Positions 1 through 17,174 of a stretch of DNA of 40,296 bases are shown here, piece after piece. The translations under genes were made by a program, and so were the position numbers. Under the pieces are notes generated by a model. It was not told the DNA's origin, did no database searches, and saw nothing but the letters and a program-made list of their open reading frames with translations. Numbering within the stretch: the stretch's first letter is position 1; every line of letters begins with the position of its first letter. Source of the stretch: a virus (Duplodnaviria > Heunggongvirae > Uroviricota > Caudoviricetes); the IMG/VR virus record IMGVR_UViG_2585427770_000004; one strand, written 5' to 3'.

Positions 1-1158
1 ATGCTCACCGTTAAGCAGATTGAAGCAGCAAAGCCGAAAGAAAAACCATACCGCCTACTCGATGGTAATGGCCTGTACCTTTATGTCCCTGTGTCAGGGA
101 AAAAGGTATGGCAGCTTCGCTACAAGATTGACGGTAAGGAGAAAATCCTGACCGTAGGAAAATATCCGCTTATGACTTTGCAGGAGGCAAGGGATAAGGC
201 ATGGACTGCGAGGAAAGAGATCTCGGCTGGCATCGATCCGGTAAAAGCGAAAAAGGCTTCGTCTAACAACAATTCCTTTAGTGCCATTTACAAGGAATGG
301 TACGAGCACAAGAAGCAAGTCTGGTCAGTAGGCTATGCAACTGAACTTGCCAAAATGTTTGATGACGACATTTTACCCATCATCGGCGGTCTTGAGATTC
401 AGGATATTGAGCCGATGCAACTGCTGGAAGTAATCCGCAGATTTGAAGATCGCGGTGCAATGGAGCGAGCCAACAAAGCCCGCAGAAGATGCGGCGAGGT
501 TTTCCGTTACGCTATTGTCACCGGAAGGGCTAAATATAACCCGGCACCTGACCTTGCTGACGCCATGAAGGGATACCGCAAGAAGAACTTCCCGTTTCTT
601 CCTGCAGACCAGATCCCGGCATTTAACAAAGCACTGGCAACATTTTCAGGAAGCATCGTATCGCTCATTGCGACCAAAGTTTTACGCTACACAGCCCTCA
701 GAACAAAAGAGCTTCGTTCCATCCTATGGAAGAACGTCGATTTTGAAAACAGGATTATCACCATCGACGCCAGTGTGATGAAGGGACGCAAAATTCATGT
801 GGTTCCTATGTCAGACCAGGTGGTTGAACTTCTCACTACGCTAAGCTCAATCACCAAACCAGTATCAGAGTTTGTTTTTTCCGGGCGCAACGATAAGAAG
901 AAGCCAATCTGCGAGAACGCGGTATTGCTTGTGATCAAACAAATTGGCTATGAGGGTCTGGAAAGCGGTCACGGATTCAGGCATGAATTCAGCACAATTA
1001 TGAACGAGCACGAATGGCCTGCTGACGCTATTGAAGTGCAACTGGCACATGCCAACGGCGGATCTGTGCGTGGGATTTACAACCATGCTCAGTATCTCGA
1101 TAAACGCAGAGAAATGATGCAATGGTGGGCGGACTGGATTGATGAAAAGGTGGAGTGA
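1..1158 (+). CDS. int: Tyrosine integrase (P4/IntS-like family)
   Basis: 385 aa; N-terminus MLTVKQIEAAKPKEKPYRLLDGNGLYLYV typical of P4-type integrases; C-terminal catalytic region with HGFRHEF (HxxR) and RGIYNHAQY (Tyr nucleophile). Confidence 0.9.
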   Translation: MLTVKQIEAAKPKEKPYRLLDGNGLYLYVPVSGKKVWQLRYKIDGKEKILTVGKYPLMTLQEARDKAWTARKEISAGIDPVKAKKASSNNNSFSAIYKEWYEHKKQVWSVGYATELAKMFDDDILPIIGGLEIQDIEPMQLLEVIRRFEDRGAMERANKARRRCGEVFRYAIVTGRAKYNPAPDLADAMKGYRKKNFPFLPADQIPAFNKALATFSGSIVSLIATKVLRYTALRTKELRSILWKNVDFENRIITIDASVMKGRKIHVVPMSDQVVELLTTLSSITKPVSEFVFSGRNDKKKPICENAVLLVIKQIGYEGLESGHGFRHEFSTIMNEHEWPADAIEVQLAHANGGSVRGIYNHAQYLDKRREMMQWWADWIDEKVE

Positions 1159-1375
1159 TCCACCTTAACCACTATCGAAGAGCACAAAGCCTTGCAATCC
1201 AGTACAAAACTTTGTTTGTCTCATCAACCATAGCAAGTCATCGATCGATTGAGGCCTGGATGATAGACTTCATGCCTTTGATTATTAGCTGATAGAAGAA
1301 ATGTTAAAGCTATTTGCAATAGTACACCTCGATTGGTGTTATCAACACGCTAAAATGTTCTGAGATTAAGTCAAG

Positions 1376-2803
1376 ATGGAGTTAATTATGTTCAGAAATC
1401 AATATGCTATATCAGACGCTTCACTAAGTGGTAACATCAGTCCTGACATGGAATGGCACAGGATGAGCATATACCTAGGAGAGGGGGCAGAGGTTTTCGC
1501 TAATGACAATTGCATTATCATAGGTAAAGTCGTCAATAGCTGCGACCCTAGCATGTCCCCTAATGATATAGCAGACGCTGTATCATCATGCGACAGCATT
1601 GAAAGTGTTTTTGAACTGACTGATGGGATGGCAGGAAGATACATAATCGCTTTCATCATAAACTCAGAGGTATATATGCTCACTGATGCTTGCGGATTCA
1701 AAAGAGCTCTATTTATGAGGTATAATGGTGCTAAAATAATAACATCATCTGAAAATTACGCCGCTCACATATTTGGGTTTAACATTGTCATTAATGAAGA
1801 TATAAAAGATATGATGCGGGATGAATCCTACAGAAGAAAAGAAAGCCCATGGTTTGGTTTGACTTCTCCAGATGAAAGATTCAGTTATTTAATACCAAAT
1901 CACTACCTGTATATAGGTGATTTTACGTTACATCGCATGCCCCCGCCAAAAATTGGTGGTGATGTAATTACCAGCGCATCATCAATGATAAAGAATACAA
2001 TTTTAGCACTTTCTGAAAGGTATAAGTTGATACAGCCTATAACGGCTGGCATTGACAGTAGGATTCTTCTTGCAGCATCTGAATCAGTTAAAGATAAAAT
2101 CGATTATTATGTATTTGGAGACGAAAACTCAAACCACGAAGATGTGTCCGTTCCTAAAGAGCTAGCAAAAATAGTTGGCGTAAATTTTAATGCAATCACC
2201 CCTCCGTCAGCACCAGATGAGTTCAAAAAGAAAATCGAAATGACAGTTCTTAGTGGTAGGGATTTGCCAAAAATAGATAATATATACTATCACTATAAAA
2301 ATTCTAACTTTGAAAAAGTAAACATCAATGGTAATGGCGCAGAGATATTCAGGTCGTATTATGGCGCGTCGATATTAGAGTTTAGCGCCAAGTCACTCTC
2401 TATACTTTCTGGAACTAAAAAATGGCCCATCATGGAAAGAAAGATTTATGATTGGCTAACATTAACTGAAGCCAAAAGATTTTCTCAAGAGAACAACATA
2501 TCAATTACCGACCTTTTCTATTGGGAGCAAAGAATGGCAATATGGGGGTCTATGTTCCCTTTAGAGCAAGATATCGCAATGGATGAGGTGTCGCCATTCA
2601 GCAATAGAAAGCTAATTTTCACAATGCTGAGCGAATCTTCAAGCAAACGTAGATCACCAGACTTTAAATCGGCAACTTTGTTAATTAATTTTATGGATGA
2701 CAGATTAAATAAAGTGCCTGTAAATCCAAAATCATCAAACCATATTATAAACTTTATAAAGGCCCATACAATAACTCAGTTAATTGTTAAGAAAATAATC
2801 TAA
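1376..2803 (+). CDS. Asparagine synthetase (AsnB)-like synthetase-domain protein without N-terminal glutaminase cysteine; cargo gene
   Basis: 475 aa, markedly AT-rich by eye; segment GRYIIAFIINSEVYMLTDACGFKRALFMRYNGAKIITSSE resembles the AsnB GATase-II fold, but the N-terminus is MELIMF with no Cys2; degenerate PP-loop ITAGIDSRILL in place of SGGxDS. Confidence 0.45.
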   Translation: MELIMFRNQYAISDASLSGNISPDMEWHRMSIYLGEGAEVFANDNCIIIGKVVNSCDPSMSPNDIADAVSSCDSIESVFELTDGMAGRYIIAFIINSEVYMLTDACGFKRALFMRYNGAKIITSSENYAAHIFGFNIVINEDIKDMMRDESYRRKESPWFGLTSPDERFSYLIPNHYLYIGDFTLHRMPPPKIGGDVITSASSMIKNTILALSERYKLIQPITAGIDSRILLAASESVKDKIDYYVFGDENSNHEDVSVPKELAKIVGVNFNAITPPSAPDEFKKKIEMTVLSGRDLPKIDNIYYHYKNSNFEKVNINGNGAEIFRSYYGASILEFSAKSLSILSGTKKWPIMERKIYDWLTLTEAKRFSQENNISITDLFYWEQRMAIWGSMFPLEQDIAMDEVSPFSNRKLIFTMLSESSSKRRSPDFKSATLLINFMDDRLNKVPVNPKSSNHIINFIKAHTITQLIVKKII

Positions 2804-2814
2804 ATTTTAAATTT

Positions 2815-2847
2815 ATCAATATCGGGGAATGCAACCCCGATATTGAT
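2815..2847. terminator. Bidirectional terminator: perfect 13-bp inverted repeat between convergent genes
   Basis: ATCAATATCGGGG-AATGCAA-CCCCGATATTGAT with AT-rich flanks, between the AsnB-like gene (+) and the beta-helix gene (-). Confidence 0.6.
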
Positions 2848-2871
2848 TTAGATTGCGTGATTGATATGCAT

Positions 2872-4518
2872 TTAAATTATTGATAGCGTTCTGATTTCAT
2901 TCCCGACCGGTGATGTCATAACTATCCGTGTTACGTTAGCGCCGGACACCGTATACGTCAGAATTATGTTACCAGCGGTTCCTATATTAAAGTTTTGTTT
3001 AGCCCCTGATGAACCTATAGCTTTGGCATTCGTTAAAGTATACGTATTACCTGAGGTAAATCCTGTAGAAATTACAAATTGTTGATCAACTTTAAAAGGA
3101 ACTGTCATTGTTACGGATGTTGACTCGACAGTAACAAATGGCAGGCTAGGCTGTTTAACCCCCGTCACATCCCAGAACTCACAGTCGCGCACCAATGCTC
3201 GACTAATTAAACCGCGAGTTACAGGGAAGGTTGTCTGGTCCTGCGATAAGAATGCCCCAACGATTTGCACGTTATCGAGCGTAATATCGTGTACCGTGGT
3301 CCCATCTATAGGACTTAACGTTGGTGATGCACTCCAGAGTTTACCCCCCTTCATTTTGATACTCACAGGGGCATTTGGGTCTCCACCATAATATGCACGG
3401 ATACGCTCAAATTTACAATCTGTGAGTTCATAGCTGCCGCGTTGATTGGTTTCGAACATTGTGTAAGCCTCGCCAGGCACGCCATGTCTAACATTGCTGG
3501 CAACAACACGGGGGTTATGTCGGAACGATGCCGACGTAACAGAGAAAACCGGCGCGCAGACATCATTGATTATAATGTCCGTGGTATAACGCCCTGTAAC
3601 AGCGTTCTCAGAGTTACTCATATCCGAATATAGCGCTTTAAAACGGGAGAAGTCTATGTTAAGCCCAACCCCTGCGCTTTTCGGGAGGGGGCCAAAATCA
3701 AGCCCGTCAATAACAATTTTCTTAGGGAAGTAAAGAGTATCATCACGGCCCACAGTTATTAAAGTTCCAGGGTAAGTAGACACACTTCCTGGATAAACTT
3801 TAATATCTTTCAGGGTGATATTATTAAATAACGTAGGACTTATAGGCGAACCGCTACTCGGCCCTTGCCCGGCAGTGACGGCAGCATTGATAATGCCGTT
3901 ACCTGGAACGCCGTTACGCAAACCAGTTAGCTTGATATTCTCCATGTATAAATCACCATCAAAGTAACCACCCGCATCTGAGCGAGTTGCAATGATGTTT
4001 CCAGGCATGTCTGGCGATGAATTGAATGTTGAGTTTGTGACGTACAGGTCGCCAATCCCTGTTACAAGAACCCCGCTGCGGCCGATGTTGCAGTCATTGA
4101 TTTTTAAGTAGTTCTGGAATGGCATATGGAAATCAATCCGGCTTAAGTCGCACCTTTCAAATCGCACATTTGCACAATTATTGCTGCCAGTTGCGCCCCA
4201 CCCTTCCCCGTTTGCGGTTGCGTTTTTGATAGTTACATTCATTGAGTTACCCAACCCGATGGTGTAGGAGTAGATATCTCCCGTTCCTGTGAACGAGTCG
4301 GCAACCGAGGGCGCGAATAACCCATCAACGATGACATCGTAGCTTTCGTTGATTTCAAGACGGCTATCGCTGAAGTTTTGTGTTAGCGGCCTATTAATAA
4401 ATGAAGTATTAATCAGGCGAACTCGTGACGCTTGATTAATGTAAATAATTCGATAATTCTTTGTAAGACTTTCATCTATGGTTAGACCTTTAATAGTTTG
4501 CACGATTACGCGAAACAC
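2872..4518 (-). CDS. Orphan right-handed beta-helix protein (tailspike receptor-binding / polysaccharide depolymerase-like) lacking a head-binding domain
   Basis: 548 aa rich in G/N/T/S/V runs typical of pectate-lyase-like beta-helices (e.g. NGVPGNGIINAAVTAGQG); GTG start at 4516-4518 with an in-frame stop 10 codons upstream; no P22-type N-terminal adaptor; lies 78 bp downstream of the UmuD'-like gene on the same strand. Confidence 0.5.
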   Translation of the reverse strand: MFRVIVQTIKGLTIDESLTKNYRIIYINQASRVRLINTSFINRPLTQNFSDSRLEINESYDVIVDGLFAPSVADSFTGTGDIYSYTIGLGNSMNVTIKNATANGEGWGATGSNNCANVRFERCDLSRIDFHMPFQNYLKINDCNIGRSGVLVTGIGDLYVTNSTFNSSPDMPGNIIATRSDAGGYFDGDLYMENIKLTGLRNGVPGNGIINAAVTAGQGPSSGSPISPTLFNNITLKDIKVYPGSVSTYPGTLITVGRDDTLYFPKKIVIDGLDFGPLPKSAGVGLNIDFSRFKALYSDMSNSENAVTGRYTTDIIINDVCAPVFSVTSASFRHNPRVVASNVRHGVPGEAYTMFETNQRGSYELTDCKFERIRAYYGGDPNAPVSIKMKGGKLWSASPTLSPIDGTTVHDITLDNVQIVGAFLSQDQTTFPVTRGLISRALVRDCEFWDVTGVKQPSLPFVTVESTSVTMTVPFKVDQQFVISTGFTSGNTYTLTNAKAIGSSGAKQNFNIGTAGNIILTYTVSGANVTRIVMTSPVGNEIRTLSII

Positions 4519-4596
4519 CCCTGAGAACCGCCATGAACAAGGGTTTCATGATTTGTGATTTTAGTTTGGTACGCAATTTGGTACACAGCACAATTT

Positions 4597-4983
4597 TCAC
4601 TTCAGCGGGTAGTCATCAAACTCACCATAACGAGCATCGTTAATGATGTATGTGATTACGCCAAATATCGCATCAGGGCTCGTTCCGTCATCGTGCAGAG
4701 GTATAGCTTCCCTTCTTCCTGTCTGCAAATCTTCCAGGTGAACCTTGGGTGATTTTCGGTATCGCTTAATCCTCAGCTCACCTTCCATTCTGCAAACAAG
4801 TAATGAGCCGTCGCATGGTGATAGCGAAGCATCCACAACCAGCAGCGCGCCATTCAGGATACCTTCCCGGTAGTGCGTCGCACCCGCTCGCATGAAGTAC
4901 GTTGCCGCTGGCCTGCTTATGATGCACTTGTCGAGCGATATGCGCTCTTCAACGTAGTCTTGTGCTGGACTCGGGAATCCCAT
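4597..4983 (-). CDS. UmuD'-like protein (S24 peptidase fold; HumD-like analogue of processed UmuD)
   Basis: 128 aa starting MGFPSPAQDYVEERI, matching the region immediately after the UmuD Cys24-Gly25 cleavage site (GFPSPAADYVEQRI); the ASGDSM serine motif appears replaced (AGATHY); RBS GGAGGTG upstream. Confidence 0.7.
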   Translation of the reverse strand: MGFPSPAQDYVEERISLDKCIISRPAATYFMRAGATHYREGILNGALLVVDASLSPCDGSLLVCRMEGELRIKRYRKSPKVHLEDLQTGRREAIPLHDDGTSPDAIFGVITYIINDARYGEFDDYPLK

Positions 4984-5000
4984 AACTCACCTCCGATGGA

Positions 5001-5020
5001 TACTGTATATTAATACAGCA
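5001..5020 (-). promoter_or_regulatory. LexA operator (SOS box) upstream of the UmuD'-like gene
   Basis: TACTGTATATTAATACAGCA has a perfect CTG-N10-CAG core with AT-rich spacer, 18 bp upstream of the start codon at 4983. Confidence 0.7.
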
Positions 5021-5118
5021 TTACTGATCGGCGGTGTCGATCAATAGCGTTTGTGGTGCTAAACTTCAGACCTTTCAGAAGCTACTGATACTTATCAAAA
5101 AACTATTATAGGTGTATT

Positions 5119-6216
5119 TTGGAAATCGATAACAGTCCACCAAGAAAGAATAACCTTCAGTATATACAGGCGCTTAGGGCTATTGCAGCTATGCTTGTCG
5201 TACTTTGCCATGCAAGGGATTTTTTGAAAGGAACAGAATATGAATGGCTGGCTCAGCGATTATTTTGGCCTGGTGCATTCGGAGTTGATTTATTTTTCAT
5301 CATTAGTGGTTTTATCATAATTTATACGTCTCATAGCTACCAAAGCAATGATTTGATAAAGTTTATTAAAAAACGTTTCTTAAGAGTTTGGCCTCTATAT
5401 TTCATCATGACTATTGCATATATAGTCATTGTTAAAAATGTTGATTTATCTTTAATGCATGGGTTTTCATATAACCAATCATCTAGCTCATTTGAATTAA
5501 CAAACATAATCAAAGGTTTGCTTTTCATTCCACTAAACACTGAGTCACCTATATACTTTGGGCCTCCATCATTGTTCGTTGGATGGACCCTCAATTATGA
5601 AATATATTTTTATTTAGTTTGCGCCATTGGAATAGCGCTGGGGAAGTTTAGGTATACATTTTATATATTATGGTTTTTCATTACACTGTTAGCTTTGCCA
5701 TCTATTGCGGGTGTATTCGACAGACCAAAAATTGAAGGTTTAGGATATATAAATTTAACCATGCAAAGCCTGATTTGGGAGTTTGTCTTCGGTGCGATTA
5801 TTGCTATCCTATACAAAAGTGGTAACTTTTCAATTAGAGACAAAAGGATTGCAATACCATTAATTTCGATTGGAATCATAATCCCTGTATGGGCTTACAT
5901 AACACAGTTTGATGCTGGGCATGGGATTTTTCATTCAGGGAAATATTTTTGCATAATGTTTGCATGCTTTACTGCATGCTCTGACTACATACAAGACAAC
6001 ATCAAAATACCACGTATTTTCATCATGATTGGTGATGCTTCATACTCTTTGTATTTAGTTCATCCAATTACGTTTATATTATGCTTTAAGATGATAGATT
6101 GGCTTGGGATGGCTGATTTATCAAAAAGCTTCTCGTTTATTTTTATTGTATTTATAACATCTGTAGCTTTTGCACTACTAAGCTATAAATATATCGAGAA
6201 AAATATTCCAAGATAA
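5119..6216 (+). CDS. Membrane acyltransferase family 3 (Oac/OafA-like O-antigen acetyltransferase); probable lysogenic-conversion gene
   Basis: 365 aa, polytopic and hydrophobic; N-terminal motif IQALRAIAAMLVVLCHA typical of Acyltransferase_3; TTG start at 5119 with no in-frame ATG before the motif; AT-rich. Confidence 0.75.
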   Translation: MEIDNSPPRKNNLQYIQALRAIAAMLVVLCHARDFLKGTEYEWLAQRLFWPGAFGVDLFFIISGFIIIYTSHSYQSNDLIKFIKKRFLRVWPLYFIMTIAYIVIVKNVDLSLMHGFSYNQSSSSFELTNIIKGLLFIPLNTESPIYFGPPSLFVGWTLNYEIYFYLVCAIGIALGKFRYTFYILWFFITLLALPSIAGVFDRPKIEGLGYINLTMQSLIWEFVFGAIIAILYKSGNFSIRDKRIAIPLISIGIIIPVWAYITQFDAGHGIFHSGKYFCIMFACFTACSDYIQDNIKIPRIFIMIGDASYSLYLVHPITFILCFKMIDWLGMADLSKSFSFIFIVFITSVAFALLSYKYIEKNIPR

Positions 6217-6223
6217 TTTTGAA

Positions 6224-6246
6224 GCGGCATGTTTGAAACATGCCGC
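6224..6246. terminator. Bidirectional terminator between convergent acyltransferase and tailspike genes
   Basis: Palindrome GCGGCATGTTT-G-AAACATGCCGC flanked by T/A runs in the 36-bp gap between 6216 and 6253. Confidence 0.6.
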
Positions 6247-6252
6247 TATTGG

Positions 6253-8175
6253 TTAGGCAGAAATATTCACAATCCCCCATGTACTTCCATTCCACACCCA
6301 TTGGACAGTAGGGTCGGAAGGATATGTTGCTGGAGATGTTCTGTAGGACACCAAGCCGATTGGGAAAGAACCTGTGTTCTCTGTCACAGTAGGCTTTACG
6401 CTAGATCTCATTTTTACTTTCTCCCATCCGCAGAATACTGGAAGAAAGGTTCCGTTATACGGGCTAAAATACGCTCCTCCAACATAAGCGCTCATTCCGG
6501 ATTCAACTGTAATCCTTAATCTGTATGCTTTACTTTTGTCGTTGGTTGGCGCTGAAACTTTGTATAACTTCCACCCTCCAACACCCATATCGTAGAACTT
6601 ATTAACTGACATATAGATGGAATTAGTACCATCTTGGGCTTCTATAGCTATCTCAAGTGGTGTGTCGCCTTTAAAGTAAAAAGCTCCACGAATGAAACCT
6701 GTCTGTGTTTTAGTTAAATTTAGGGTTATTCTGCAAAGTTGAGATGCGTTAGTGACTCCAAACCATCTACCGCAGCCAGATGGTTCATTAGGGTCAGAAC
6801 CAACCTTTCGTTCGTTCGGTATAATTAAAAGGGAATAGTCAATAGGTGCTCCGTAGACTCCATCAATAACCGACCAATCTCCAGAAGGGCAAAGATTAGA
6901 ACCGGAGACACTGAACGTATCTCCTCCCTGTGCGCCTGCTGTAGGGTCTGTCCCTAATATGGTATTCATGGGGCTCATGGTTGAGGCCCAGTTACCATAT
7001 TGCACACGCGCGCCAAGTATGGTCCACGGCCCACGTATTTTCCCATTGCCCGTAACCTCGCCATACAAACCTATCACAACATTATGCTGATTTGGGGTGC
7101 TATTGTTATAGAGCAAATAATCGCCGCTTCCCGATGTGTCAAGACCTATAAATGTGTTTGCGTTCCCCTCATACGGAGCACCGGTCTGGCGACTAAAACC
7201 CGATCCAGTTATGATCAGACCACCACCGCAAAGCTGCTCAAATGTATTTTGATTTATAGATCCATCAGAGATGTCAATTATGAATCTGCCACCACCTGAC
7301 GTAGTACCTGTTTTGATGCGTACAAATTGATTCCAAAAACTCCCGCCACCCCATTCAACCAACCCAGGCAGAGTGTATGCGTCTGATGATAAAAATCTTA
7401 TATCGCCGGTCGTATCAATGTTCGAGATAATAGAAAACTGTAGCCCTCTAATGTATAACGATTTACATGAAAGGCCAGTTACATTTATAGATTTACTATG
7501 AAGGATTAGGAAATCCCCGTTAGGGATTCGGCCAACACAATCAACGTTACAGCGGATCACAAAGCGACCAGCAGAAGCATGAATGCCAGTCAGCTTGGTC
7601 ATATCAACGACATAATCGCCTGGAGGGATATGCAATGATTTTCTGTTTTTCCCATACTCAACTAATTGTGAATAATCACCGTTAGCATAATCCAATGCCT
7701 CACACAGTTTAGCAGTAACATCTGTACCATCCGGGAATACTCCCCATCCACGCACGTCTAAATCATCACGCCAGCGATAAATCTGCAATGCGGGATATTT
7801 GGTTGCCCCATCAGGGTCTTCAATCTGCTGCCTTAACTGATCTGGATCATACTTCAACACGTTTGGATAGTTGAACTGCTGTGTACCATAAGCATCGTAC
7901 ACAGCCATAGAATGGCCTTGCACGGTAACGAATTTGGCAATCTGTCCGTTATATACAGGATAACCAGCAGCGTTAATGATGATTGGTTGCGAAACAGGAA
8001 CGTGAGAGCCGTCTTCGTTCTCCACATAAACCTGAATCTGGTTTTCAGGATTTACCGGGTCAGTGTCAATTTTACCGATATAAATTTTGCCATTGGCAAC
8101 CGCTTTAAAAGAACGCGCCATAGTGAAGAGTTGCGAAGGCATGCTTACTACAACATTGGCTGTAATGTCTGTCAT
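6253..8175 (-). CDS. Tailspike protein (P22 gp9 family) with conserved N-terminal head-binding domain and divergent receptor-binding domain
   Basis: 640 aa; N-terminus [97 protein letters not shown] matches the P22/HK620/Sf6 adaptor domain as recalled; the remainder is beta-helix-like but unrecognised. Confidence 0.9.
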
Positions 8176-8233
8176 TTAATTTGCTCCAGATACAAGGAAT
8201 CGCCGCAGCGTAGCTACGGTGAATTTTGGGCAT

Positions 8234-8256
8234 AAAAAAACCCAGCCGAAGCTGGG
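8234..8256 (-). terminator. Rho-independent terminator between ant and tailspike
   Basis: Minus strand reads CCCAGC-TTCG-GCTGGG followed by TTTTTTTATG. Confidence 0.6.
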
Positions 8257-8275
8257 TCGTTGCGTTGGTTATCTG

Positions 8276-9154
8276 TCAGTAGTTATGTACTGAAGGAGGC
8301 AATTCTTTATTCTTAAGTCTCATCCATGCGGAAAGATTCGTTGGTCCGTCTGGCTCATTAATATCAACATCTCGTGTGTGGTTTATTAAAACGTCTCTCG
8401 CCATTCCGATAACATACGAGAATTCATGACCGTAGTCGTAGCATCTGCCGGAATAGTTCGATTGAATTTGTTTTAGCGCCGGATACAGTTCGCGGAATAA
8501 TGCCTGTGAGCGGTTGGCATAATCCCATAACCATACAAGGCTGTTTGCTTCTTTTGCAGAAAGCTCGTTGGTTTTCTTCTCTTGTTTGCCAATGAACTCA
8601 CCTTCAAGCACTACCCTGTGGATGTACTCTACGGCCAGCGGGATTTGTTCAATTGAAAGTTCATCAATGCTGTCAATACCAAAACGCTGATGAACCATAT
8701 TGTATGCATCGTCATAGCGAAGTCCTTTCCTTCCTACCAGCATGTTTACTGCATCGCGTAGCGGTGTTCTTTCCTCAACAGTGGTTTTCTTTCCTTTTAC
8801 ATACTCGCCATGTTTGCGAATTGAAGGCAGAACTTCTGCTGTTACCCACTTGCGGAATTTGTGCGGGACTGAACCTTTATTGACTGCATCGCGGCAGCGC
8901 AGAACCAATGTATACATACCTGATTCGCTCACAATGCTTAGATTCTGCTCACCACCAAGGGTGTAACTTAAAGTTACTCCCTTTTCATCGTCATCAAGTG
9001 CAGTAAGCGCCTTGCGTGAGTTAGTCAAATCTAAAGCATCACAAACATCTTTAGCTACAAACCACGGCTCACCGCACTTGTTGATGACGCGGATTTCACT
9101 GTCGCCGAATTTGAAGATGGTGAAATCGTTTTGTGCCTTTGCTATACTTTTCAT
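8276..9154 (-). CDS. ant: Antirepressor Ant (KilA-N/Bro-N type)
   Basis: 292 aa directly downstream of arc on the same strand; N-terminus [30 protein letters not shown] matches the antirepressor N-terminal domain. Confidence 0.8.
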
Positions 9155-9222
9155 GTCAATATTTCCTAATCCGATTTGTTGATGCCGAAGCCCTGACTGT
9201 TACAGCAGTTGGGGCTTCAACT

Positions 9223-9384
9223 TTACGCACCAATGCGCCCTTCCTTCTTAAAGCTTTCCATTACTCGCTGATAAATCTCAGAATTAACAGACCGACCATT
9301 TTCTTCCGCCACCTTGCGTACCAAATCCAATACTTCTTTAGGCCACCGCAAATTGAACTGTGGCATTTTGCTCATTCCTTTCAT
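9223..9384 (-). CDS. arc: Arc repressor
   Basis: 53 aa MKGMSKMPQFNLRWPKEVLDLVRKVAEENGRSVNSEIYQRVMESFKKEGRIGA, essentially P22 Arc as recalled; the track ORF 9223..9447 extends upstream over the operator. Confidence 0.9.
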   Translation of the reverse strand: MKGMSKMPQFNLRWPKEVLDLVRKVAEENGRSVNSEIYQRVMESFKKEGRIGA

Positions 9385-9399
9385 GTTCACCTCACAATA

Positions 9400-9418
9400 T
9401 AGGTCCACGGTGGACCTA
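9400..9418. promoter_or_regulatory. Mnt operator (O-mnt)
   Basis: Perfect 19-bp palindrome TAGGTCCACGGTGGACCTA between arc and mnt. Confidence 0.75.
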
Positions 9419-9426
9419 TTGAGAAT

Positions 9427-9447
9427 ATAGTAGAGTGCTTCTATCAT
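9427..9447. promoter_or_regulatory. Arc operator (O-arc)
   Basis: ATAGTAGAGTGCTTCTATCAT is the reverse complement of the recalled P22 arc operator ATGATAGAAGCACTCTACTAT. Confidence 0.75.
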
Positions 9448-9474
9448 GTCAATACACTAACTTGGAGTGATGGC

Positions 9475-9729
9475 ATGGCTAGAGATGATCCGCACTTTAA
9501 CTTCCGTATGCCTTTGGAAGTAAGAGAAAAATTGAAATTAAGAGCCGAGGCTAACGGAAGGTCAATGAACTCTGAGTTATTACAAATCGTTCAGGATGCA
9601 CTATCAAAACCATCACCGATTACAGGATATCGCGACGAAGCTGAACGCTTGGCTGATCAGCAGGCTGAGCAGTTCAAGGCTATAGTGTTTGAGACACTTA
9701 AAAAGATTTATGAAAAGGATTTGAAATGA
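9475..9729 (+). CDS. mnt: Mnt repressor
   Basis: 84 aa MARDDPHFNFRMPLEVREKLKLRAEANGRSMNSELLQIVQDALSKPSPITGY, near-identical to P22 Mnt as recalled. Confidence 0.9.
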   Translation: MARDDPHFNFRMPLEVREKLKLRAEANGRSMNSELLQIVQDALSKPSPITGYRDEAERLADQQAEQFKAIVFETLKKIYEKDLK

Positions 9730-10061
9730 GATTTCTATCACTGTTCTTGTTAGCAGTTGTCTCTTCTTCCAGTGCTGAGCTGCGCGAGCTTCAAACGGGT
9801 AATGACCTTCTTTACAACATTCAACAAGGTAAAAAGGGTGATGATTTTTCATCGCTTTACATTACTGGATATTTGCGCGGAGTAACTGACTCATTGATAC
9901 TAATTGGTTCTCTATGTCCTCCTGATGGCGTTGACATGTATCAATACACCGATATCGTTGAGAAATATCTAAACAAAAACCCAGAATCAAGAAATGAGAG
10001 TGCAGTTATACTAACCGCCCTAGCAGTAGGAAAAACATTTCCGTGCAAAAAGAATCAATAA
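9726..10061 (+). CDS. Secreted/periplasmic protein of unknown function (signal peptide), translationally coupled to mnt
   Basis: 111 aa; N-terminus MRFLSLFLLAVVSSSSAEL is signal-peptide-like; two Cys; ATGA start/stop overlap with mnt. Confidence 0.5.
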   Translation: MRFLSLFLLAVVSSSSAELRELQTGNDLLYNIQQGKKGDDFSSLYITGYLRGVTDSLILIGSLCPPDGVDMYQYTDIVEKYLNKNPESRNESAVILTALAVGKTFPCKKNQ

Positions 10062-10076
10062 CAATAAGGGCTTAAA

Positions 10077-10466
10077 ATGAAATTGATTATAGCAATGGCT
10101 TTCCTTGTCTTCTCGTTTTCTGTCTCAGCAGAGTGCTGGGTCGTTGGAGATATGCACGGAATAAGCTATTCAGAACGAAATAATTTTCAACCGGAAGAAG
10201 ATGGTTTTAGTGGAACATTCATCATTAAGACAAACGGTGAAGATGCCAGTATCACATATTCTGGGACGGATGCGGGCGGCATGGCTTACAAAGCATTGTC
10301 TAAAAACTCCATCATTGGAATCGGCGCGAATGGCGAAACTCAACGAGTTATCGACTCATGGGTAATACATCCTAATGGAACAGTTTTAATGTCGAAAACC
10401 ATTTCTGGTTATGGGAATATGGATTCAACCAAAGCTTTTGTTGGAAAAGTAAAAAGAAAATGTTAA
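10077..10466 (+). CDS. Secreted/periplasmic protein of unknown function (signal peptide)
   Basis: 129 aa; N-terminus MKLIIAMAFLVFSFSVSAEC is signal-peptide-like; RBS AAGGG upstream; C-terminal KRKC. Confidence 0.5.
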   Translation: MKLIIAMAFLVFSFSVSAECWVVGDMHGISYSERNNFQPEEDGFSGTFIIKTNGEDASITYSGTDAGGMAYKALSKNSIIGIGANGETQRVIDSWVIHPNGTVLMSKTISGYGNMDSTKAFVGKVKRKC

Positions 10467-10490
10467 CGATTGAATCCAATTCCCCATACG

Positions 10491-12332
10491 TTACTGCTGT
10501 GTTGCCTCAGTAGCAAGCAGCGGCCTGATGGCATTTGCAGCGTTACTCAACGCTCTTTCATAGGCTGGCGTTCCAGCTTTAGTGTTTGCCAGACGTAAGA
10601 GAGCATTCCTTGCTGCTTTGGACTCATACAAACGCATCATTGCACCAAAGCCAGCCTCAAGCCCCATTGATACACCAAGAGTCGCAGTTGCGCCAATCGT
10701 CCTTATCCTGTTGGCTTGTGATTGCCCCGTCTGAGTTACTACATTTGCAGTGTCTGACCTTGCTGTTTGCTGTAGAACTTCATGAAGAGCATCAAGCTCT
10801 TTCATGTGCTTTCCAGAAAAAATAGTGTTGTAAATTTCACCGCCTGACTGAGATTTCAGCTTATTAACTTCAGTGATGAACTTGGCTGGAGAGTCACCGG
10901 CCTTTTCCGCTATTTTGCTGACGTAAGCTGCACGCATAGCATCTTTCCCTTTATCATCCAGGGCGCTCCATATTCGTTTCACGTCAGATGGTTTTCTGCT
11001 TAATACAACGGTATTTATAAGTTCAGGACTGGCTTCACTGCTTGCCTTGTTGAGCTTGTTAGCAATGTTTTTATTAAGCACCTTATTATAAACGTTTGCA
11101 TAATCGGAATTTGCTTTAAGGTATTTTGCTGCGTCTGATGCACCGAGGTTTTTAGCAACTGCGTTACGAAGGTCTTTTGACATTGCATTCTCTACCATAT
11201 TGGTAGCTGCTTTTGCCTGGTTGGGGAAGACCATAGCATCTCCCTGAACATTAGATCTAAATGCTGTTCTGTGCTGACGCAAGAGATCAAACGTAACATC
11301 CAAATCAGTTGCAGGGTTTGCTAATTCTTCACGTAGGTTACGCAAGGATGTAAGCAGGCTTTGATTGGCAGACGTCCCAAGCCGTTCCTGTCTTGCGATC
11401 GCTGTATTCAGAGCATTCATGGTATTTGTGGTATCAACTGCGGCATTACCCATTTTATTGGTGACGTCATTGATAACAGCGCCAGCGGCATCCTTCCGCC
11501 CCCTTAACGTGGTGGTAAGAGATTTCACCACATCATCAGGGTTGTACTCACCAAAACGGTCAAAATAATTACTTACCAGCTTACTACGCGTTGCATATTG
11601 CTCCGCTCGCTTTGAGCCTGTCCCTAGCAAAGCCCCCTCGGCATCCTGAGTTAGGCCGCGAGTGAAAGCATTTTTCGGCGGGATAACATCAGATGTCATT
11701 GGTGTCACGCCCATCGATTCTGATGTGGCAATTTTCTTCGCCACTTCTGGCGCAATATCACCTTTTATAGCCGTTATTCCACGCCCTATTCCCTTTGCTG
11801 CTGCGGAAAGAACACCCTGAGTGGCAAGGTTAACTCCGGCATTTTTAGCTGCATTTTGTGCGAAATCGCCTTTCTGATTTGCGGCCTCTGCCAGTGATCC
11901 AATAGCCATGCTTCCTGCCGTTCCAACTCCTGGAACTAAATACCCACCAATTGTTTCACCGGCTTGCGCGTAGGGGTCTGTCGGTCTGTCTACTGGACGA
12001 TAAACATCATCCAAAACCTTGGGTCCACCAAGCCCCTGACTGATTGCATTAATCAGACTTGCGCCGCCCTGCAATACGTCAAATGGTATGTTTACCAGAC
12101 CACGACCAGCCTGTTCTGCAATTTGCCCTGCACTTTGACCACCAGTGAGCCAATCGCCAGCTTGTTGCATCAATGATGGTTCTTCCCGTGTTGGTGCATT
12201 ATTGGCCTGATTAACTGTTTGTTGCTGAACAGCCTGACCAGCAAAATACTCATCAATGGCGGTGCCAATATCTTCGGTGCTCGTACCATCAGGAAAGGTA
12301 AATGTCTTACCGTTTGCAGTTACTTTCATCAT
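10491..12332 (-). CDS. DNA ejection/transfer protein gp16
   Basis: 613 aa; N-terminus [33 protein letters not shown] matches P22 gp16; true start may be the second ATG at 12329 (ATGATGA overlap with the gp20 stop). Confidence 0.85.
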
Positions 12333-13744
12333 TCCACCGTAAATTGAATGCCTGATTTTGAGGTATATGATCCAACCTGATTCCGTGGTTCTCCTGAAGG
12401 TGTCGAATCTTGTGCTGGCGCTGCGTCAGTATTCATTGACATATACCGCTTAACGGCACTCCCCAATGATTCACCTTTTTTAACATCCAACCCCAATATC
12501 TGACCGCCATTACGCGATTGTCCAGGGTTGCCATTCGCGCTCATCCACTCGGCTTTAAACTCATTAAACTGCGCGTTTCGTCGCTCAAGGTTTGCCATTG
12601 CATCAAGCCATCTTGCGACCGTCTCAGGGTTATCCATGTCAGTTGGCGCACCCTGTCGAACGATCTCAACGTCTTTATCCGTTGCTGGGCCGGGAGGTAG
12701 GAATTTAAGAACCTGACTGTTAACAAGGGCATTTTGGCGAATGCGCAAATCACGCAATGTTGTATCGCTTCCGGTAAGTTTTGCGAACATGTTCTGTGCG
12801 TTACCGAACAAACCTGTCGTTGGTTTTTCTGCTCTGAACTGTTGAGCAAGCGCACTCATAGAATTGGCTGAGTTTGATGATGCTGTAGCATTGTTTACAG
12901 CCGTCTCGATGCCTTTTTCCATGTTTACTGACAGCTTAGGTGCTTCGCTAATCAACTGCTGAGCCTTTTCCTGCGCTTGCTGCATCTTAAACCCGAACTC
13001 TTGCTGATCCAGAGCCAAGCGTTGTGCTGCGATATTGTGCCCAGTCATTGCTGACTGATAGGAAAGGTTTTGCCCTCTCGCCTGAAGTGCTTCACCAGCC
13101 TGATTGCTGCGGATTGTCTCTGCCAGCCTGCCTCGGTCAATCTCACGACCAGCCATCTTGTCCTGAACAGCAAACGCCTTTTCTGGTCCAAGCGCACCGA
13201 GAGACATAGTAGTCAGCATGTGTGATAGCTGCTCTGGATTCTGGATACCTGTCTGAATCATCCAGTCAGCATTAGCACCAACGCGATTTAACCTGTCCTT
13301 GTTGTCAGTAATGAATTTACTGTAGGCTTCCGGTCCCTGAGAAAGAGCGACGTTAGCCCTCATGGCTAAATCGCCCATATCGTTGCGTTGCTGATCATTA
13401 AGACCGGAAAACGCCTGTTGTGCCTGTGCAACAAACGCTGGATTTTCCTGGGCAAACTTAAATAGTCCCGATGGATCACCAGAAGCCCATGCATCAGCGT
13501 GAACCTTATTGAACGCACTAATAGCTTTCTGTTGCTTTTCCTGATTGTAAATATCAGCAACTCCAGCCAGACCACGTAACGCGGTCAGGCCAACGTTATT
13601 TGCACCTGAGCGAGCCAGTTCATTGTTTTCGCGGATCAGACCAAGCGTTGCGTTAATGTCGCTTGCCTTTGGCGCATTCTCATTTTGCGTACCGATGCCA
13701 GCCAGAAAACCACCAGAATTAATACCCTGTTGCCACGTAGCCAT
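12329..13744 (-). CDS. DNA ejection protein gp20
   Basis: 471 aa, the size of P22 gp20; Q/A/N-rich; position between gp7 and gp16. Confidence 0.8.
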
Positions 13745-13754
13745 TGATTACCCC

Positions 13755-14450
13755 TTAATAAAGCAGTGAACCAAGCAGACCGATACCAGCACCGATACCA
13801 GCCCCCCACGGAGTTGATGAACCAATTAATTTCGCAAGTCCAGCCCCAGCAATAGCACCAGACGCACCTCCGCCAATAGCAGATTGCATTGCTGATGGTC
13901 TGTTGGCATTTGCCGCTGCAAGAGCCGCACTTTGCTGCGAAATCTGACTCATGTTGTTGGCATATGTCTGCCCGGCGTTTGCCTGACCTTGCAGTGCGCC
14001 AAGACCAATATTTGCCAGATTCTGGTAGTTGTTCATCTGACCAGACAGCCACTGCTGACCAAGCGTTGGTGCGATTGTTGCTAACTGATTACCGGTTGCA
14101 GTGGAACCCAATCCACCTGTTGCTTCCGCTGCCGCCAGACTCTGATAGCGAGCCTGACCAGCAAGATCTTTGTACTGCTGAGAGTTGTAATACTGGTTAA
14201 GTGCCTGACCTTGCCCTTCCAGAGACGATAAGTTCTCGAGGCTGCCGACATACTTATCAGCCAGAGGAGTAAACGGCTTCAGGTTGTTCATGATGGTGTT
14301 GAACTGCTGATTTTGCAGGTCTGCGGCATACTTCTGAGCTTCTGCTGCATACTTTGCGCTTTTATCAGAGCTGCCACCTTTCCCGCCTTTTTCAGGGCAA
14401 TAAGGTTCCTCGCCGCGCAGTTTTCTGCCCAGCTTAAATGCATATAACAT
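13755..14450 (-). CDS. DNA ejection protein gp7
   Basis: 231 aa, Gly/Ala/Gln-rich with glycine-rich C-terminus; P22 gp7 size and position. Confidence 0.75.
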   Translation of the reverse strand: MLYAFKLGRKLRGEEPYCPEKGGKGGSSDKSAKYAAEAQKYAADLQNQQFNTIMNNLKPFTPLADKYVGSLENLSSLEGQGQALNQYYNSQQYKDLAGQARYQSLAAAEATGGLGSTATGNQLATIAPTLGQQWLSGQMNNYQNLANIGLGALQGQANAGQTYANNMSQISQQSAALAAANANRPSAMQSAIGGGASGAIAGAGLAKLIGSSTPWGAGIGAGIGLLGSLLY

Positions 14451-14452
14451 GG

Positions 14453-14908
14453 CTATCTCCCGTGATTCAGGAAGTCGATTAGTTCTTCGCGTGTGGCGCT
14501 GTAAAACGTCACGTCATCCACGCCTTTGAAGTATTTCTTGATGGTTCCTACACGATTAAGGCCAATCATTGCGCAGTACATCTGACCGTGGCGGAATTTG
14601 CGTGCAGCGAACGATGTGACGCACTGAACGGTGGTGTTAGTCAGAATGTATCGCCAGAACGCCAGCCCGATTTCCTTGCTGAATCCACGAACCTCTGGCA
14701 GGTACATGGCGTGGCAATCGAATGTAAGCGGCTGAATTTCCTGATAGTAAACAATGCCGCCAAACTGACCGTACACGTTAACCTCAAAGTAACGGCATTC
14801 AGGCTTGTAGTCGTATCCATCACCGTTGTTGCTTCCGGCAATAATGTCAGGGTGATTTCCGACTGCTTCTATCAGGTCGATGTTTCGCGTTGGTTTGAAC
14901 TGAATCAT
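14453..14908 (-). CDS. Head assembly protein gp14
   Basis: 151 aa; position between tail needle and gp7 in conserved P22 order. Confidence 0.65.
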   Translation of the reverse strand: MIQFKPTRNIDLIEAVGNHPDIIAGSNNGDGYDYKPECRYFEVNVYGQFGGIVYYQEIQPLTFDCHAMYLPEVRGFSKEIGLAFWRYILTNTTVQCVTSFAARKFRHGQMYCAMIGLNRVGTIKKYFKGVDDVTFYSATREELIDFLNHGR

Positions 14909-15756
14909 TACTGCTCCGCGATTATCTTGATGGTTGTGGCAGTAAACGCCGCACCATTTGACTGAATGGTTAACGTGCTGCCATTTGTGGCAAGAAAGCC
15001 GTCTTTATCCACGCTGAAGAACGTAGCTAACAGGATGTTATCGGTCGTTGTCGCCGAGTTGCGACTGCTTACCAGTGTGTCAGGAACAGAGCCGGAAAAT
15101 GTTAGTTGCATTGACCTGTTGTCGGTTCCGCTGGGCCACGTCCCGACGATCGACAGCTTAAAGAACAAGGTTTTGTTCTCGTTGAACACAACCATCTTGT
15201 TGTTAACGGTGTCGAAGAATGGTGCCAACGAGCCTGATGACGGCGTGAGCGTTTTCAGCAGGCTAACAAGGTTGGTCGGCGCTGTCGGGATGGTTACAGA
15301 TACGCCAGAGTAAACAACCTCTGACTTCTTGCGAGTAGTGGCATACTCCAGAGCATCAATGCGCGATTCATGGTCTGAAACCTGCGATTCCAGCGACTGA
15401 ACTCTGGTATCAAGCGACGCAATATCGCTTTCATTCTGAGCGATTCGCGTTTCATGTTCCTGAAGAGTTGATTCTGCCTGGCTGATTCGCTCCTCATGAT
15501 TAACAAGCGTTGCTTCCGCAGCAGAAATTCGCTGCTCATGGTCAGCGAGAATCACATCCTGCTCATCGTTCCTGACCTGTGCATCATAAGCGCCCTGTCC
15601 GGCCTCGTTGGCCTTGTTAGCCACGTTACCAACATCAGTGCCCTGTGCGATAACGTAAAGCAGATACGACTGCGAGAAGATATTGCGTGGAAGAACTGAT
15701 GTATCGAGCCGCGTAGCCTGGATGATTACCGGCACATTGAGATTCGAATCCGCCAT
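14908..15756 (-). CDS. Tail needle protein gp26 with extended C-terminal (knob-type) domain
   Basis: 282 aa; N-terminus [20 protein letters not shown] followed by heptad coiled-coil ([43 protein letters not shown]); longer than the 233-aa P22 needle. Confidence 0.8.
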
Positions 15757-17174
15757 TACTCAATCCTTATCTGAGCACCAGACAGAGTGACAGGTGACTT
15801 CGTGATAACGCGCAATTTGAAGCCAACATTTTTCCTGATGCGCCCTACTCGCTTCCACAAAACGCGTTTGTCGTAAACGAACGGTTCATTCTGCTCAATC
15901 ATCTGCTCACGCCCGTAATTGATGCCGTCAGTGGTTGCAGAGAGGAACAGGCGGTCAGCGTACTGCGCAACGCCAGTTGAAGATTCAACCTCAAGGTCGA
16001 ACACCCGGGCGTTATCCGCTTTGAACAACGGAGTAAACAGCAGGTGTTCCTGTTGCTTGTCGTACTGGCTGCTGATGTCGAATTGCAGTTTCCCGGTAAC
16101 AGATTCCAGCTTATCGCCGCACGTTATCTGATTGCCTTCGTAAATGAAGTCGATAGCGCGGTACACATCGTCATACAGGCCTGTTTTCAGCACACACCAT
16201 TGCGGACCATTAGCGCTTGAAGATGCGTCGTAAACAAGAACATGGCGCGGCAGGTGAATAATCAGCAACTCATGAGCATCAAACCGCAACGATTCCATCA
16301 CGCCATCAGCCAGTTCATCAGCAGTGTAGGAGCGTAGTATTTTCTCAATGCTCGCGCTGGCGATTGGTGACACCTGACCGGAGCCGATGATGTATACAGA
16401 CGGCGCACCTGTTGCCGGATTGCTGATAAACGCATAGGAATCAGCAAACGGCGTTTTGCAGTAAGTCCCGGCGATGCCTTTTTGCACCATCAGTGATGGC
16501 TGTGCGACATACAAAGCGGCACCAACGGTGGTTGCGCCAGTCAGGGAGAAATATTCAATCGTCGATGAACCAAAGCAGACGATGAAGTCTCGCCATGTTC
16601 CGATGCCGATGATGCCGTCCGGCTGCGATTCTGCGCGATATTGTGCACTGTATCGGTCAGGATGCGATTCGTCTTCAAGGTCAGTGATAAACCATGAATC
16701 AGTGCCGTCTTTTGACCACGCATAACGCCCACGTAAGCGCGTAATGTCGCGGACTGAGCCTAACTCATACTGCGTGAATCCGCTGTCTGTAGGCCAGTTT
16801 GAGACGGTTTTAATCGTGCCATCATAGCGATACTCGACCAGTTTCCCGTTAACCCCTACCGCCTGTGATATACGACCATGCGCCATTGATACGCGACCAC
16901 TTCCGGCAACGTCACCGACTTCACTTTCTCCTTTGTACAGCTTGCCACCACACACACGATAAACAGCATTCTGCGCCATGTTGTACTCGACGCCGCGAGA
17001 TACACCGTTCACATCAGAACGTTTTGCAATGCCCGGGAATGAGCGAAGATATCCACTGCTGTTGAGGATTTCTTTTGGTGTAGCCAGCATATTCACTGGC
17101 AGATAGTCGATATAGTCAGCGTTTCGGAAATCTTTGCCGACACCTTTCATAAGCGGAAGTTGCTGAATCGGCAT
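15756..17174 (-). CDS. Tail hub / head completion protein gp10
   Basis: 472 aa, same length as P22 gp10; conserved position. Confidence 0.75.

Follow-up and report, generated by a model that had tools for sequence, protein, structure and literature searches.

The gene at positions 5119..6216 of the window (the whole stretch of 40,296 nucleotides analysed here, IMG/VR record IMGVR_UViG_2585427770_000004, a virus of the Caudoviricetes) encodes a predicted ten-helix inner-membrane O-acyltransferase which consists of an AT3 domain only. Sequence comparisons suggest that it is an accessory gene of a prophage, involved in lysogenic conversion, whose product modifies the receptor glycan of the tailspike encoded next to it (probability about 0.7). 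The gene is intact and encodes all the catalytic motifs and the AT3 fold; it has the layout of an accessory gene, it is inherited as a block with the receptor-binding part of the tailspike and it is found in hosts of the O38 type. From these comparisons, it is probable that the enzyme acts on the receptor glycan of the tailspike; the group transferred is, by analogy, very probably acetyl, while the chances that the glycan is the O38-type O-antigen appear to be even.

An earlier, sequence-only reading of this DNA had proposed that the gene is Oac-like and that it converts the O-antigen that P22-like tailspikes use as a receptor. The conversion proposal is the best-supported explanation, as judged from sequence comparisons, and it is strengthened by the adjacency of the gene to receptor genes, its co-transfer with the receptor-binding part and the O38-type hosts; the likeness to Oac holds at the level of the superfamily only, and the argument for a recent acquisition does not survive.

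The acyltransferase and its family

5119..6216, + strand: gene of the AT3-only (Acyl_transf_3) integral-membrane O-acyltransferase, defined from the open reading frame (ORF), Pfam, PHROG, motifs and an AlphaFold2 (AF2) model

The ORF is uninterrupted and encodes 365 residues from a TTG start (the coordinates include the stop codon). The protein matches Pfam PF01757 (Acyl_transf_3) over residues 14-356, which correspond to positions 2-325 of the 326 of the profile (E=1.1e-28, 100.7 bits for a cut-off of 31), and its best profile match is PHROG 3333, 'O-acetyltransferase' (E=1.2e-59). NCBIfam and PADLOC return no match, hence neither a curated name nor a catalogued defence system. The AF2 model, built on 43 homologues, has a pLDDT of 90.8 and a pTM of 0.89 and shows ten long helices (residues 14-36, 56-71, 76-107, 153-173, 175-197, 209-233, 242-262, 273-294, 299-328 and 338-360). 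The hydropathy profile agrees with ten transmembrane (TM) helices. The polytopic Acyltransferase_3 protein announced by the sequence-only reading is thus borne out by the full-length Pfam match and the modelled helices. The chain ends five residues past TM10, and both Pfam and the model indicate an AT3-only protein, with no 11th helix and no SGNH domain.

The R/K-X10-H, FFXISG and RXXR motifs have been defined and mutated in OafA and Oac, and R14 and H25 of OafA are both essential (PMC7448272). The motif V-x-x-FFx(I/V/L)SG(F/W/Y) in TM2 and the RXXR motif before or in TM3 have been described for AT3 proteins (PMC7448272, PMC9558356). The window protein has all of them: R20 and H31 form the TM1 motif, V56DLFFIISGF65 the TM2 motif and R86-F-L-R89 the RXXR motif, and they are invariant in alignments of 12 and 43 sequences. 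The same alignments show that W156TLxxE161, G225 and E360 are also invariant.

Sequence and profile searches against solved structures gave no AT3 entry in the PDB. In a fold search the best solved match is the CoA-bound human HGSNAT, an acetyl-CoA-dependent enzyme, and this match is weak (E=0.04, TM-score 0.38). AT3 proteins and HGSNAT are reported to be unified in a TmAT superfamily (PMC12423673). The match of the model to HGSNAT is consistent with membership in this superfamily and does not prove it.

The identity to characterised enzymes is low: 23% with Oac from phage Sf6 and 24% with OacB from phage Sf101 (pairwise E 1e-6). Neither was recovered by a tblastn search with the acyltransferase (E<=1e-5) among 50,697 phage records. 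Orthology to Sf6 Oac (also called OacA) or to OacB was considered and is not supported at these identities, and 'Oac-like' is therefore correct at the level of the superfamily and not beyond. The O-acetylase of phage 611R6 shows only a short N-terminal similarity. The best tblastn matches among the phage records are genes labelled 'ExoZ' from Salmonella Lederbergviruses (31%) and Yersinia phages (28%), and a DNA search of the same records found no phage with the gene itself, only matches to the humD/att flank.

In a collection of 5.8 billion proteins, the cluster at 99-100% identity contains only E. coli. Metagenome contigs, Morganella and Erwinia supply the relatives at 55-67%, Citrobacter and Escherichia sp. 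those at 40-43%, and a large cloud lies further out at 30-37%. The acyltransferase thus belongs to the AT3 superfamily and, within it, to a phage-borne subfamily, and no characterised O-antigen acetylase is its orthologue.

The GC content of the gene is 33.6% (31% at third codon positions, GC3), 13 points lower than the 46.5% of the whole window. The TTG start and this low GC had been taken as signs of recent acquisition, an argument which the homologues contradict: in the six examined, whose sources are gut metagenomes, Erwinia, Citrobacter and Escherichia sp., the start is ATG and the GC content is 33-38%, whatever the host. Low GC is therefore a stable trait of the family and cannot be used as a clock; it is, besides, common to O-antigen genes and to membrane proteins rich in Ile and Phe. 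The TTG codon is specific to this allele and probably lowers translation. Recent horizontal spread is real on another ground. The 1098 nt of the ORF show no difference across four loci (L005-L008), which represent two types of E. coli prophage, a prophage remnant in strain NCTC9038 and an E. marmotae genome; the gene is thus identical in E. coli and E. marmotae while the flanks diverge.

Prophage setting and tailspike

Positions 1-16216 of the window are 100% identical to a stretch of the E. coli assembly GCA_000713985.1, where the integrase gene comes after yfdC and tRNA-Arg(CCT), which is argW. This identifies the window as a P22-like (Lederbergvirus) prophage inserted at argW. At DNA level its integrase, of the IntS type, is about 96% identical to the Sf6 one, and the integrase region is matched at about 95-97% by CUS-3, Kapi1 and IME10.

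Sf6 has the order attP, int, oac, terminator and convergent tailspike. The sequence-only reading placed the acyltransferase in the position of oac, and the order int, acyltransferase, convergent tailspike is indeed the same, though three additional genes, orf475 (+), orf548 (-) and humD (-), lie between int and the acyltransferase. The convergence with the tailspike was also read correctly: the tailspike ORF (6253..8175, - strand), which has a Head_binding domain, faces the acyltransferase across a spacer of 36 bp. Lying between integrase/att and the tailspike, as a separate transcription unit with a deviant GC content, the acyltransferase gene has the layout of a serotype-converting gene.

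The features which border the gene are the following.

4486..4504: junction where the humD-acyltransferase-tailspike cassette meets an older cassette made of orf475 and a headless tailspike, from the ends of BLAST matches

4597..4983, - strand: humD, a UmuD'-like S24 peptidase (NCBIfam HumD equivalog, E=6e-62), divergent from the acyltransferase; left flank of the cassette

6253..7836, - strand: receptor-binding part of the tailspike (aa 114-640), co-inherited with the acyltransferase in the comparisons with Morganella and with locus L007

7837..8175, - strand: P22 head-binding domain of the tailspike (aa 1-113; Pfam Head_binding, E=8e-66); conserved flank for cassette exchange

The closest isolated phage to the receptor-binding part is CBA6 (51%), and the comparisons made with the tailspike did not reveal its receptor. 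Phages of the 2851/mEp234/Sf101 type have an attP/sbcB-site sequence to which the humD region is homologous.

Genomic contexts and transfer of the cassette

The exact acyltransferase protein occurs in 214 blocks of an assembly collection, in four arrangements, and humD adjoins it in all of them.

Arrangement (a), that of the window: argW, then int, orf471, orf548, humD and the acyltransferase, convergent with the tailspike

Arrangement (b), in E. marmotae HT073016 (CP025979, locus L008): argW, then int, humD and the acyltransferase, convergent with the tailspike

Arrangement (c), the most frequent (e.g., locus L007): dacD, then humD and the acyltransferase, convergent with the tailspike, then a P22-like prophage and sbcB

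Arrangement (d), in strains NCTC9038, DAM and ANT: dacD, then humD and the acyltransferase, insertion sequence (IS) debris and sbcB

Arrangement (c) mirrors the layout of Sf101 at sbcB. In arrangement (d) the tailspike is reduced to 573 bp or less and both the acyltransferase and humD are intact. The dacD-sbcB prophages of NCTC9038 (the O38 reference strain; loci L001 and L006) and DAM (L002) are decayed and riddled with IS30, IS1, IS3 and IS110. These remnants look like the domestication of a modifier gene.

The neighbourhoods of more distant relatives are listed with their identity to the window protein.

Morganella (P0011), 64%: converges on a tailspike with a Tail_spike_N domain

P0008, 59%: converges on a tail-fibre C-terminal protein

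P0010, 55%: converges on a P2-type tail fibre and its assembly genes

Citrobacter (P0012), 43%: directly after a P22-type tailspike

Salmonella Lederbergvirus SI8, 31%: converges on a tailspike

Yersinia YeP2, 28%: directly after a tail fibre

Relatives at 28-64% identity thus have a tailspike or tail-fibre gene as neighbour, whether the phage is P22-like, P2-like or Mu-like or comes from Morganella. There are exceptions. The Erwinia copy lies near phage remnants, beside a second AT3 gene, and lone AT3 genes of 377 residues (40-42%) sit exactly between dacD and sbcB, the integration site of phages of the Sf101/2851 type, with no surrounding prophage (loci L012, L013 and L014, in Escherichia sp. 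ESNIH1 and other Enterobacteriaceae). The latter look like domesticated ends of prophages. In the Erwinia genome (Erwinia sp. Eh17-17, L009, 6440..9110) the two AT3 genes are divergent and back to back, one of them 55% identical to that of the window, and the pair lies between the phage remnants and the fliE-fliF flagellar cluster.

The Morganella tailspike provides the clearest case of co-transfer. Its receptor-binding part is 79% identical to that of the window (aa 114-639) and its N-terminal anchor is unrelated. The pair is conserved on a different anchor; the receptor-binding part and the acyltransferase have therefore passed jointly from one phage type, and one genus, to another. At short distance, the same tailspike accompanies the identical acyltransferase in E. 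marmotae as well as in E. coli prophages at argW and at dacD/sbcB. Positions 4686-7685 of the window differ from L007 by 4 nt; from about 7690 on, L007 and L008 both show a cluster of differences, and the head-binding region and the sequence beyond it diverge by several percent. The E. marmotae locus differs from the window by 13 nt in humD and by 25 residues in the tailspike. In this comparison (window about 4800..6600) the acyltransferase ORF is a sharply bounded identical block inside mosaic flanks, which suggests a very recent exchange or sweep. On the left, the BLAST matches of L001 and L007 begin at 4486 and that of L002 stops at 4504, and the cassette appears to have been exchanged by recombination in conserved flanks.

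Association with O38-type hosts

Strain NCTC9038 has wzx and wzy of the 'O38 family', and its O-antigen cluster contains no acyltransferase. This O38 assignment is that of the RefSeq annotation of wzx and wzy ('NCTC9038' was not found in searchable papers). The O38 wzx and wzy genes are present in 13 of 5426 complete E. coli genomes, and the three complete genomes which carry the acyltransferase are all among these 13. The probability of this occurring by chance is about 1e-8, or about 5e-6 when DAM and ANT are counted as one clone. Similarly, E. marmotae HT073016 has an O38/S. dysenteriae 8 (SD8) cluster and agglutinates with SD8 antiserum (PMC6650469).

Points against and alternative explanations

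Several observations weigh against the conversion of the tailspike's receptor glycan and against the O38 O-antigen as this glycan. They concern the specificity of the enzyme, its expression and the O38 association.

The identity to any characterised O-antigen acetyltransferase is just 23-24%, the acceptor specificity of AT3 proteins is not readable from sequence, and the labels of the relatives in their source databases are generic ('ExoZ', 'OafA/YrhL'). A functional enzyme could act on another acceptor of the envelope, which the tailspike may or may not target: a capsule or K-antigen, peptidoglycan, colanic acid, the enterobacterial common antigen, which WecH modifies, or the osmoregulated periplasmic glucans, which OpgC modifies. 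The comparisons gave no receptor for the tailspike, and many relatives are labelled ExoZ, an exopolysaccharide acetylase, but these labels are automatic and generic. CUS-3, a related P22-like phage which matches the window, targets and modifies the capsule and not the O-antigen, as seen in the biology of NeuO; with a capsule as receptor here too, the polymer would change but not the mechanism. AT3 proteins do act on all the polymers listed above (PMC9558356), but the association with the host concerns an O-antigen type, O38, and the layout is that of the proven O-antigen acetylases of Sf6 and Sf101. Another acceptor is therefore rather unlikely.

Expression is the weakest link of the conversion reading. 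The relevant signals are as follows.

5001..5020: LexA-box-like palindrome TACTGTATATTAATACAGCA (CTG-N10-CAG), read from the sequence

5057..5065, + strand: weak candidate extended -10 promoter, TGcTAAACT, from a relaxed scan

5110..5114, + strand: Shine-Dalgarno-like AGGTG, read from the sequence, 4 nt 5' of the TTG start

6223..6247: hairpin between the convergent stop codons, with a perfect 11-bp stem and a 3-nt loop, from folding and comparison with shuffled sequences

Translation starts at a TTG codon, and the spacer upstream contains a LexA-like box. A consensus scan of this spacer (4984-5118) found no convincing sigma-70 promoter, and a relaxed scan gave weak candidates only. The gene could then be a silent or barely expressed remnant, AT-rich and possibly silenced by H-NS, which hitch-hikes with its neighbours and gives no phenotype to the lysogen. 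The TTG codon, where the six homologues have ATG, and the lack of a consensus promoter in the 135-bp spacer fit this explanation, but the other side is heavier. The TTG codon is preceded by a good Shine-Dalgarno motif, which makes it a legitimate start, and it is also the start chosen by the NCBI PGAP annotation in RefSeq genomes. An in-frame TGA lies upstream (5086-5088), and the next ATG or GTG codon downstream corresponds to M25, past the essential R20: the TTG at 5119 (or possibly ATT at 5116) is therefore the sole start that keeps TM1 complete. The N-termini of the homologues are equal in length to that of the window protein. Nothing interrupts the ORF and all its catalytic residues are conserved; the assembly collection has 214 blocks with the identical protein. 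In NCTC9038 IS elements have wrecked the neighbouring tailspike and the remainder of the prophage and left the gene intact, which is the pattern that selection at the level of the host would produce. A silent cargo is therefore very unlikely. A pseudogene was also considered, and the intact ORF, the invariant motifs and the retention of the gene amid decayed neighbours rule it out.

The palindrome TACTGTATATTAATACAGCA lies in the upstream spacer between the divergent humD and acyltransferase genes, at a distance of 18 nt from humD and of 98 nt from the start of the acyltransferase, and matches 17 of the 20 positions of the SOS-box consensus. The two genes could share this box, so that the enzyme would be made under SOS control and would mask the receptor on the dying cell and its debris after induction; it would spare the progeny virions from being trapped rather than convert the serotype of the lysogen. 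The unit formed by humD, the spacer and the acyltransferase is kept in every context found, in line with this explanation, but the distances fit the regulation of humD alone. The gene also persists alone in decayed prophages, and surface O-antigen presumably turns over slowly, so that late acetylation would have little effect. Sf101, which has a similar neighbourhood with a humD remnant, acetylates the O-antigen in lysogens (PMC4159516). This form of control is very unlikely to explain the gene.

The hairpin has a minimum free energy (MFE) of -18.6 kcal/mol on the + strand and -18.0 kcal/mol on the - strand (z=-3.3 and -4.6, respectively, against the shuffles). It is likely a bidirectional terminator which separates the acyltransferase from the late operon, and Sf6 has an annotated oac terminator at the corresponding place.

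The O38 association is itself confounded. In NCTC9038, DAM and ANT the acyltransferase is only about 24-30 kb from the O-antigen (rfb) cluster, so that the association could result from hitch-hiking; DAM and ANT seem to be clonal, and 10 of the 13 O38 genomes lack the gene. In E. marmotae the cassette is at argW, which lies far from rfb on the E. coli map. The O38 typing covers the three complete E. coli carriers and E. marmotae, and look-ups in the literature did not yield the structure of the O38/SD8 O-antigen, which would show whether it has an O-acetyl group. The Morganella cassette shows, moreover, that the target glycan is not necessarily limited to O38. The linkage to rfb, the clonality, the O38 genomes without the gene, the reach of the typing and the missing structure are the reasons why specificity for O38 is given even odds and not more.

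A second candidate cassette

Two of the genes between int and humD may form another pair of the same kind.

1376..2803, + strand: orf475, a candidate AsnB-like glycan modifier, from its structure model

2872..4518, - strand: orf548, the receptor-binding part of a tail fibre or tailspike without its head, from PHROG, identity and fold matches

The two genes are convergent. Pfam, NCBIfam, PHROG and PADLOC give no match to the orf475 product. Modelled with a pLDDT of 93.5, it shows a two-domain fold like that of asparagine synthetase B, for which Foldseek finds carbapenam synthetase, beta-lactam synthetase, TsnB9 and AsnB as best matches (E down to 1e-12). It has a conserved PP-loop-like motif, T223-A-G-x-D227-x-R229, and no N-terminal Cys. 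A relative from Enterobacter (84%) lies in the order int, S24 peptidase, relative, convergent tailspike, that is, in the slot held by the acyltransferase in the window, and another relative (50%) is inside a polysaccharide biosynthesis cluster. The orf548 product matches positions 424-961 of the 963 of PHROG 16586, is 59% identical to a protein of Shigella phage MK-13 and 49% to one of Rtp50, and also matches the solved tailspike 8x8m. Its 548 residues include no head-binding domain, in the window or in strain DAM, and it was therefore rejected as a second functional tailspike of the P22 type.

The orf475-orf548 pair looks like an older cassette of the same design, a modifier facing a receptor-binding part. 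The model suggests that orf475 could be an ATP-dependent modifier of surface glycans which amidates carboxylates, an unusual chemistry for seroconversion. If so, orf475 would be a new kind of phage glycan-modifying gene, responsible for the ATP-dependent amidation of a carboxylate of the O-antigen.

Two other accessory genes lie elsewhere in the prophage, between the mnt/arc immunity region and the genes of the ejection proteins. The first (9726..10061, + strand) encodes a 111-residue protein with a Rap1a domain (PF18602, a family of type VI secretion immunity proteins) and the second (10077..10466, + strand) a 129-residue protein with an N-terminus that resembles a signal peptide. Neither has a PADLOC match.

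Proposed function

The mechanism proposed for the acyltransferase takes Oac, OafA and OafB as its models. The pore of the AT3 domain would take up an acyl group, presumably acetyl, from cytoplasmic acyl-CoA as donor, with the participation of R20 and H31 in TM1 and of R86 and R89 in TM3. The group would be passed, on the periplasmic face, to a hydroxyl of the undecaprenyl-linked polysaccharide, either the O-unit or the polymer, before ligation to the lipid A-core; the acceptor sugar and position would be ones that lie in the polysaccharide recognised and cleaved by the receptor-binding part of the adjacent tailspike. The modification may then hinder binding or cleavage by the cognate tailspike. 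A lysogen which expresses the gene would change serotype, and this phage and others with the same tailspike would adsorb to it poorly, which would lead to their exclusion.

The cassette would move by homologous recombination in the head-binding or adaptor domain on one side and in humD/att on the other, and its carriers would span P22-like prophages at argW, P22-like prophages at sbcB and a Morganella phage with a Tail_spike_N anchor. The acyltransferase would be an O-acyltransferase encoded outside the O-antigen cluster, which decorates the O-antigen of E. coli O38, S. dysenteriae 8 and E. marmotae. Taken jointly, a portable cassette that both recognises and masks a glycan, a non-cluster O-acyltransferase for O38/SD8/E. 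marmotae and a second cassette in tandem with an amidation chemistry make a tentative proposal, somewhat short of even odds.

Should the acetylation of O38/SD8 be correct, a gene would be assigned to a modification with effects on serotyping, the design of vaccine antigens and the host range of phages, in the emerging species E. marmotae as well as in E. coli and Shigella. The joint travel of modifier and receptor-binding part suggests that the modifier gene of a prophage could help to predict which tailspikes its lysogen resists.

Comparison with known systems

The closest architectural analogue is Sf101 rather than Sf6, with its tailspike, convergent oacB, humD-like remnant and int. Sf101 is a P22-like serotype-converting phage which integrates at sbcB and carries oacB (PMC4159516). 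Its host is S. flexneri, where OacB 3/4-O-acetylates rhamnose III. Both proteins are AT3-only and of similar size (365 residues in the window, 390 for OacB), both genes converge on a P22-type tailspike and have humD-like sequence on the other side (a remnant in Sf101), and the window gene is most often found (as in L007) in a P22-like prophage at dacD/sbcB, where Sf101 integrates as well. It also survives, as oacB does, in remnants riddled with IS elements. The differences are the 24% identity, the receptor-binding part, the O-antigen backbone (O38-type compared to S. flexneri) and the location of the window at argW.

Sf6 Oac (OacA) 2-O-acetylates rhamnose I and blocks the Sf6 tailspike. The window shares with Sf6 an AT3-only enzyme, the order int, acyltransferase, terminator and convergent tailspike, and the argW integrase of the IntS type, and the RXXR and FFxISG motifs, which are critical in Oac, are present in the window protein. 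It differs from Sf6 in the 23% identity, the three genes after int, the TTG codon where Sf6 has ATG, and a tailspike that is unrelated outside the head-binding domain.

The AT3 genes of Salmonella phages of the SI8 type and of Yersinia YeP1-3 (PHROG 3333, labelled ExoZ) are 28-31% identical over 84% of the length and, like the window gene, neighbour a tailspike or tail fibre, whereas the subfamily of the window (55-67%) comes from metagenome contigs, Morganella and Erwinia. OafB (GtrC family II, from the Salmonella prophage BTP1) and OafA are also AT3 proteins and share the R/K-X10-H motif of TM1 and the RXXR motif, but both are AT3-SGNH fusions, in which the AT3 part is followed by an 11th helix and an SGNH domain in the periplasm. 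OafB is borne by a prophage and its modification protects against the phage's own tailspike (PMC9558356). The masking of a receptor by a prophage acetylase is thus a well-known strategy and the established picture of lysogenic conversion is unchanged; what is new is a member of the family which travels with its tailspike as a cassette.

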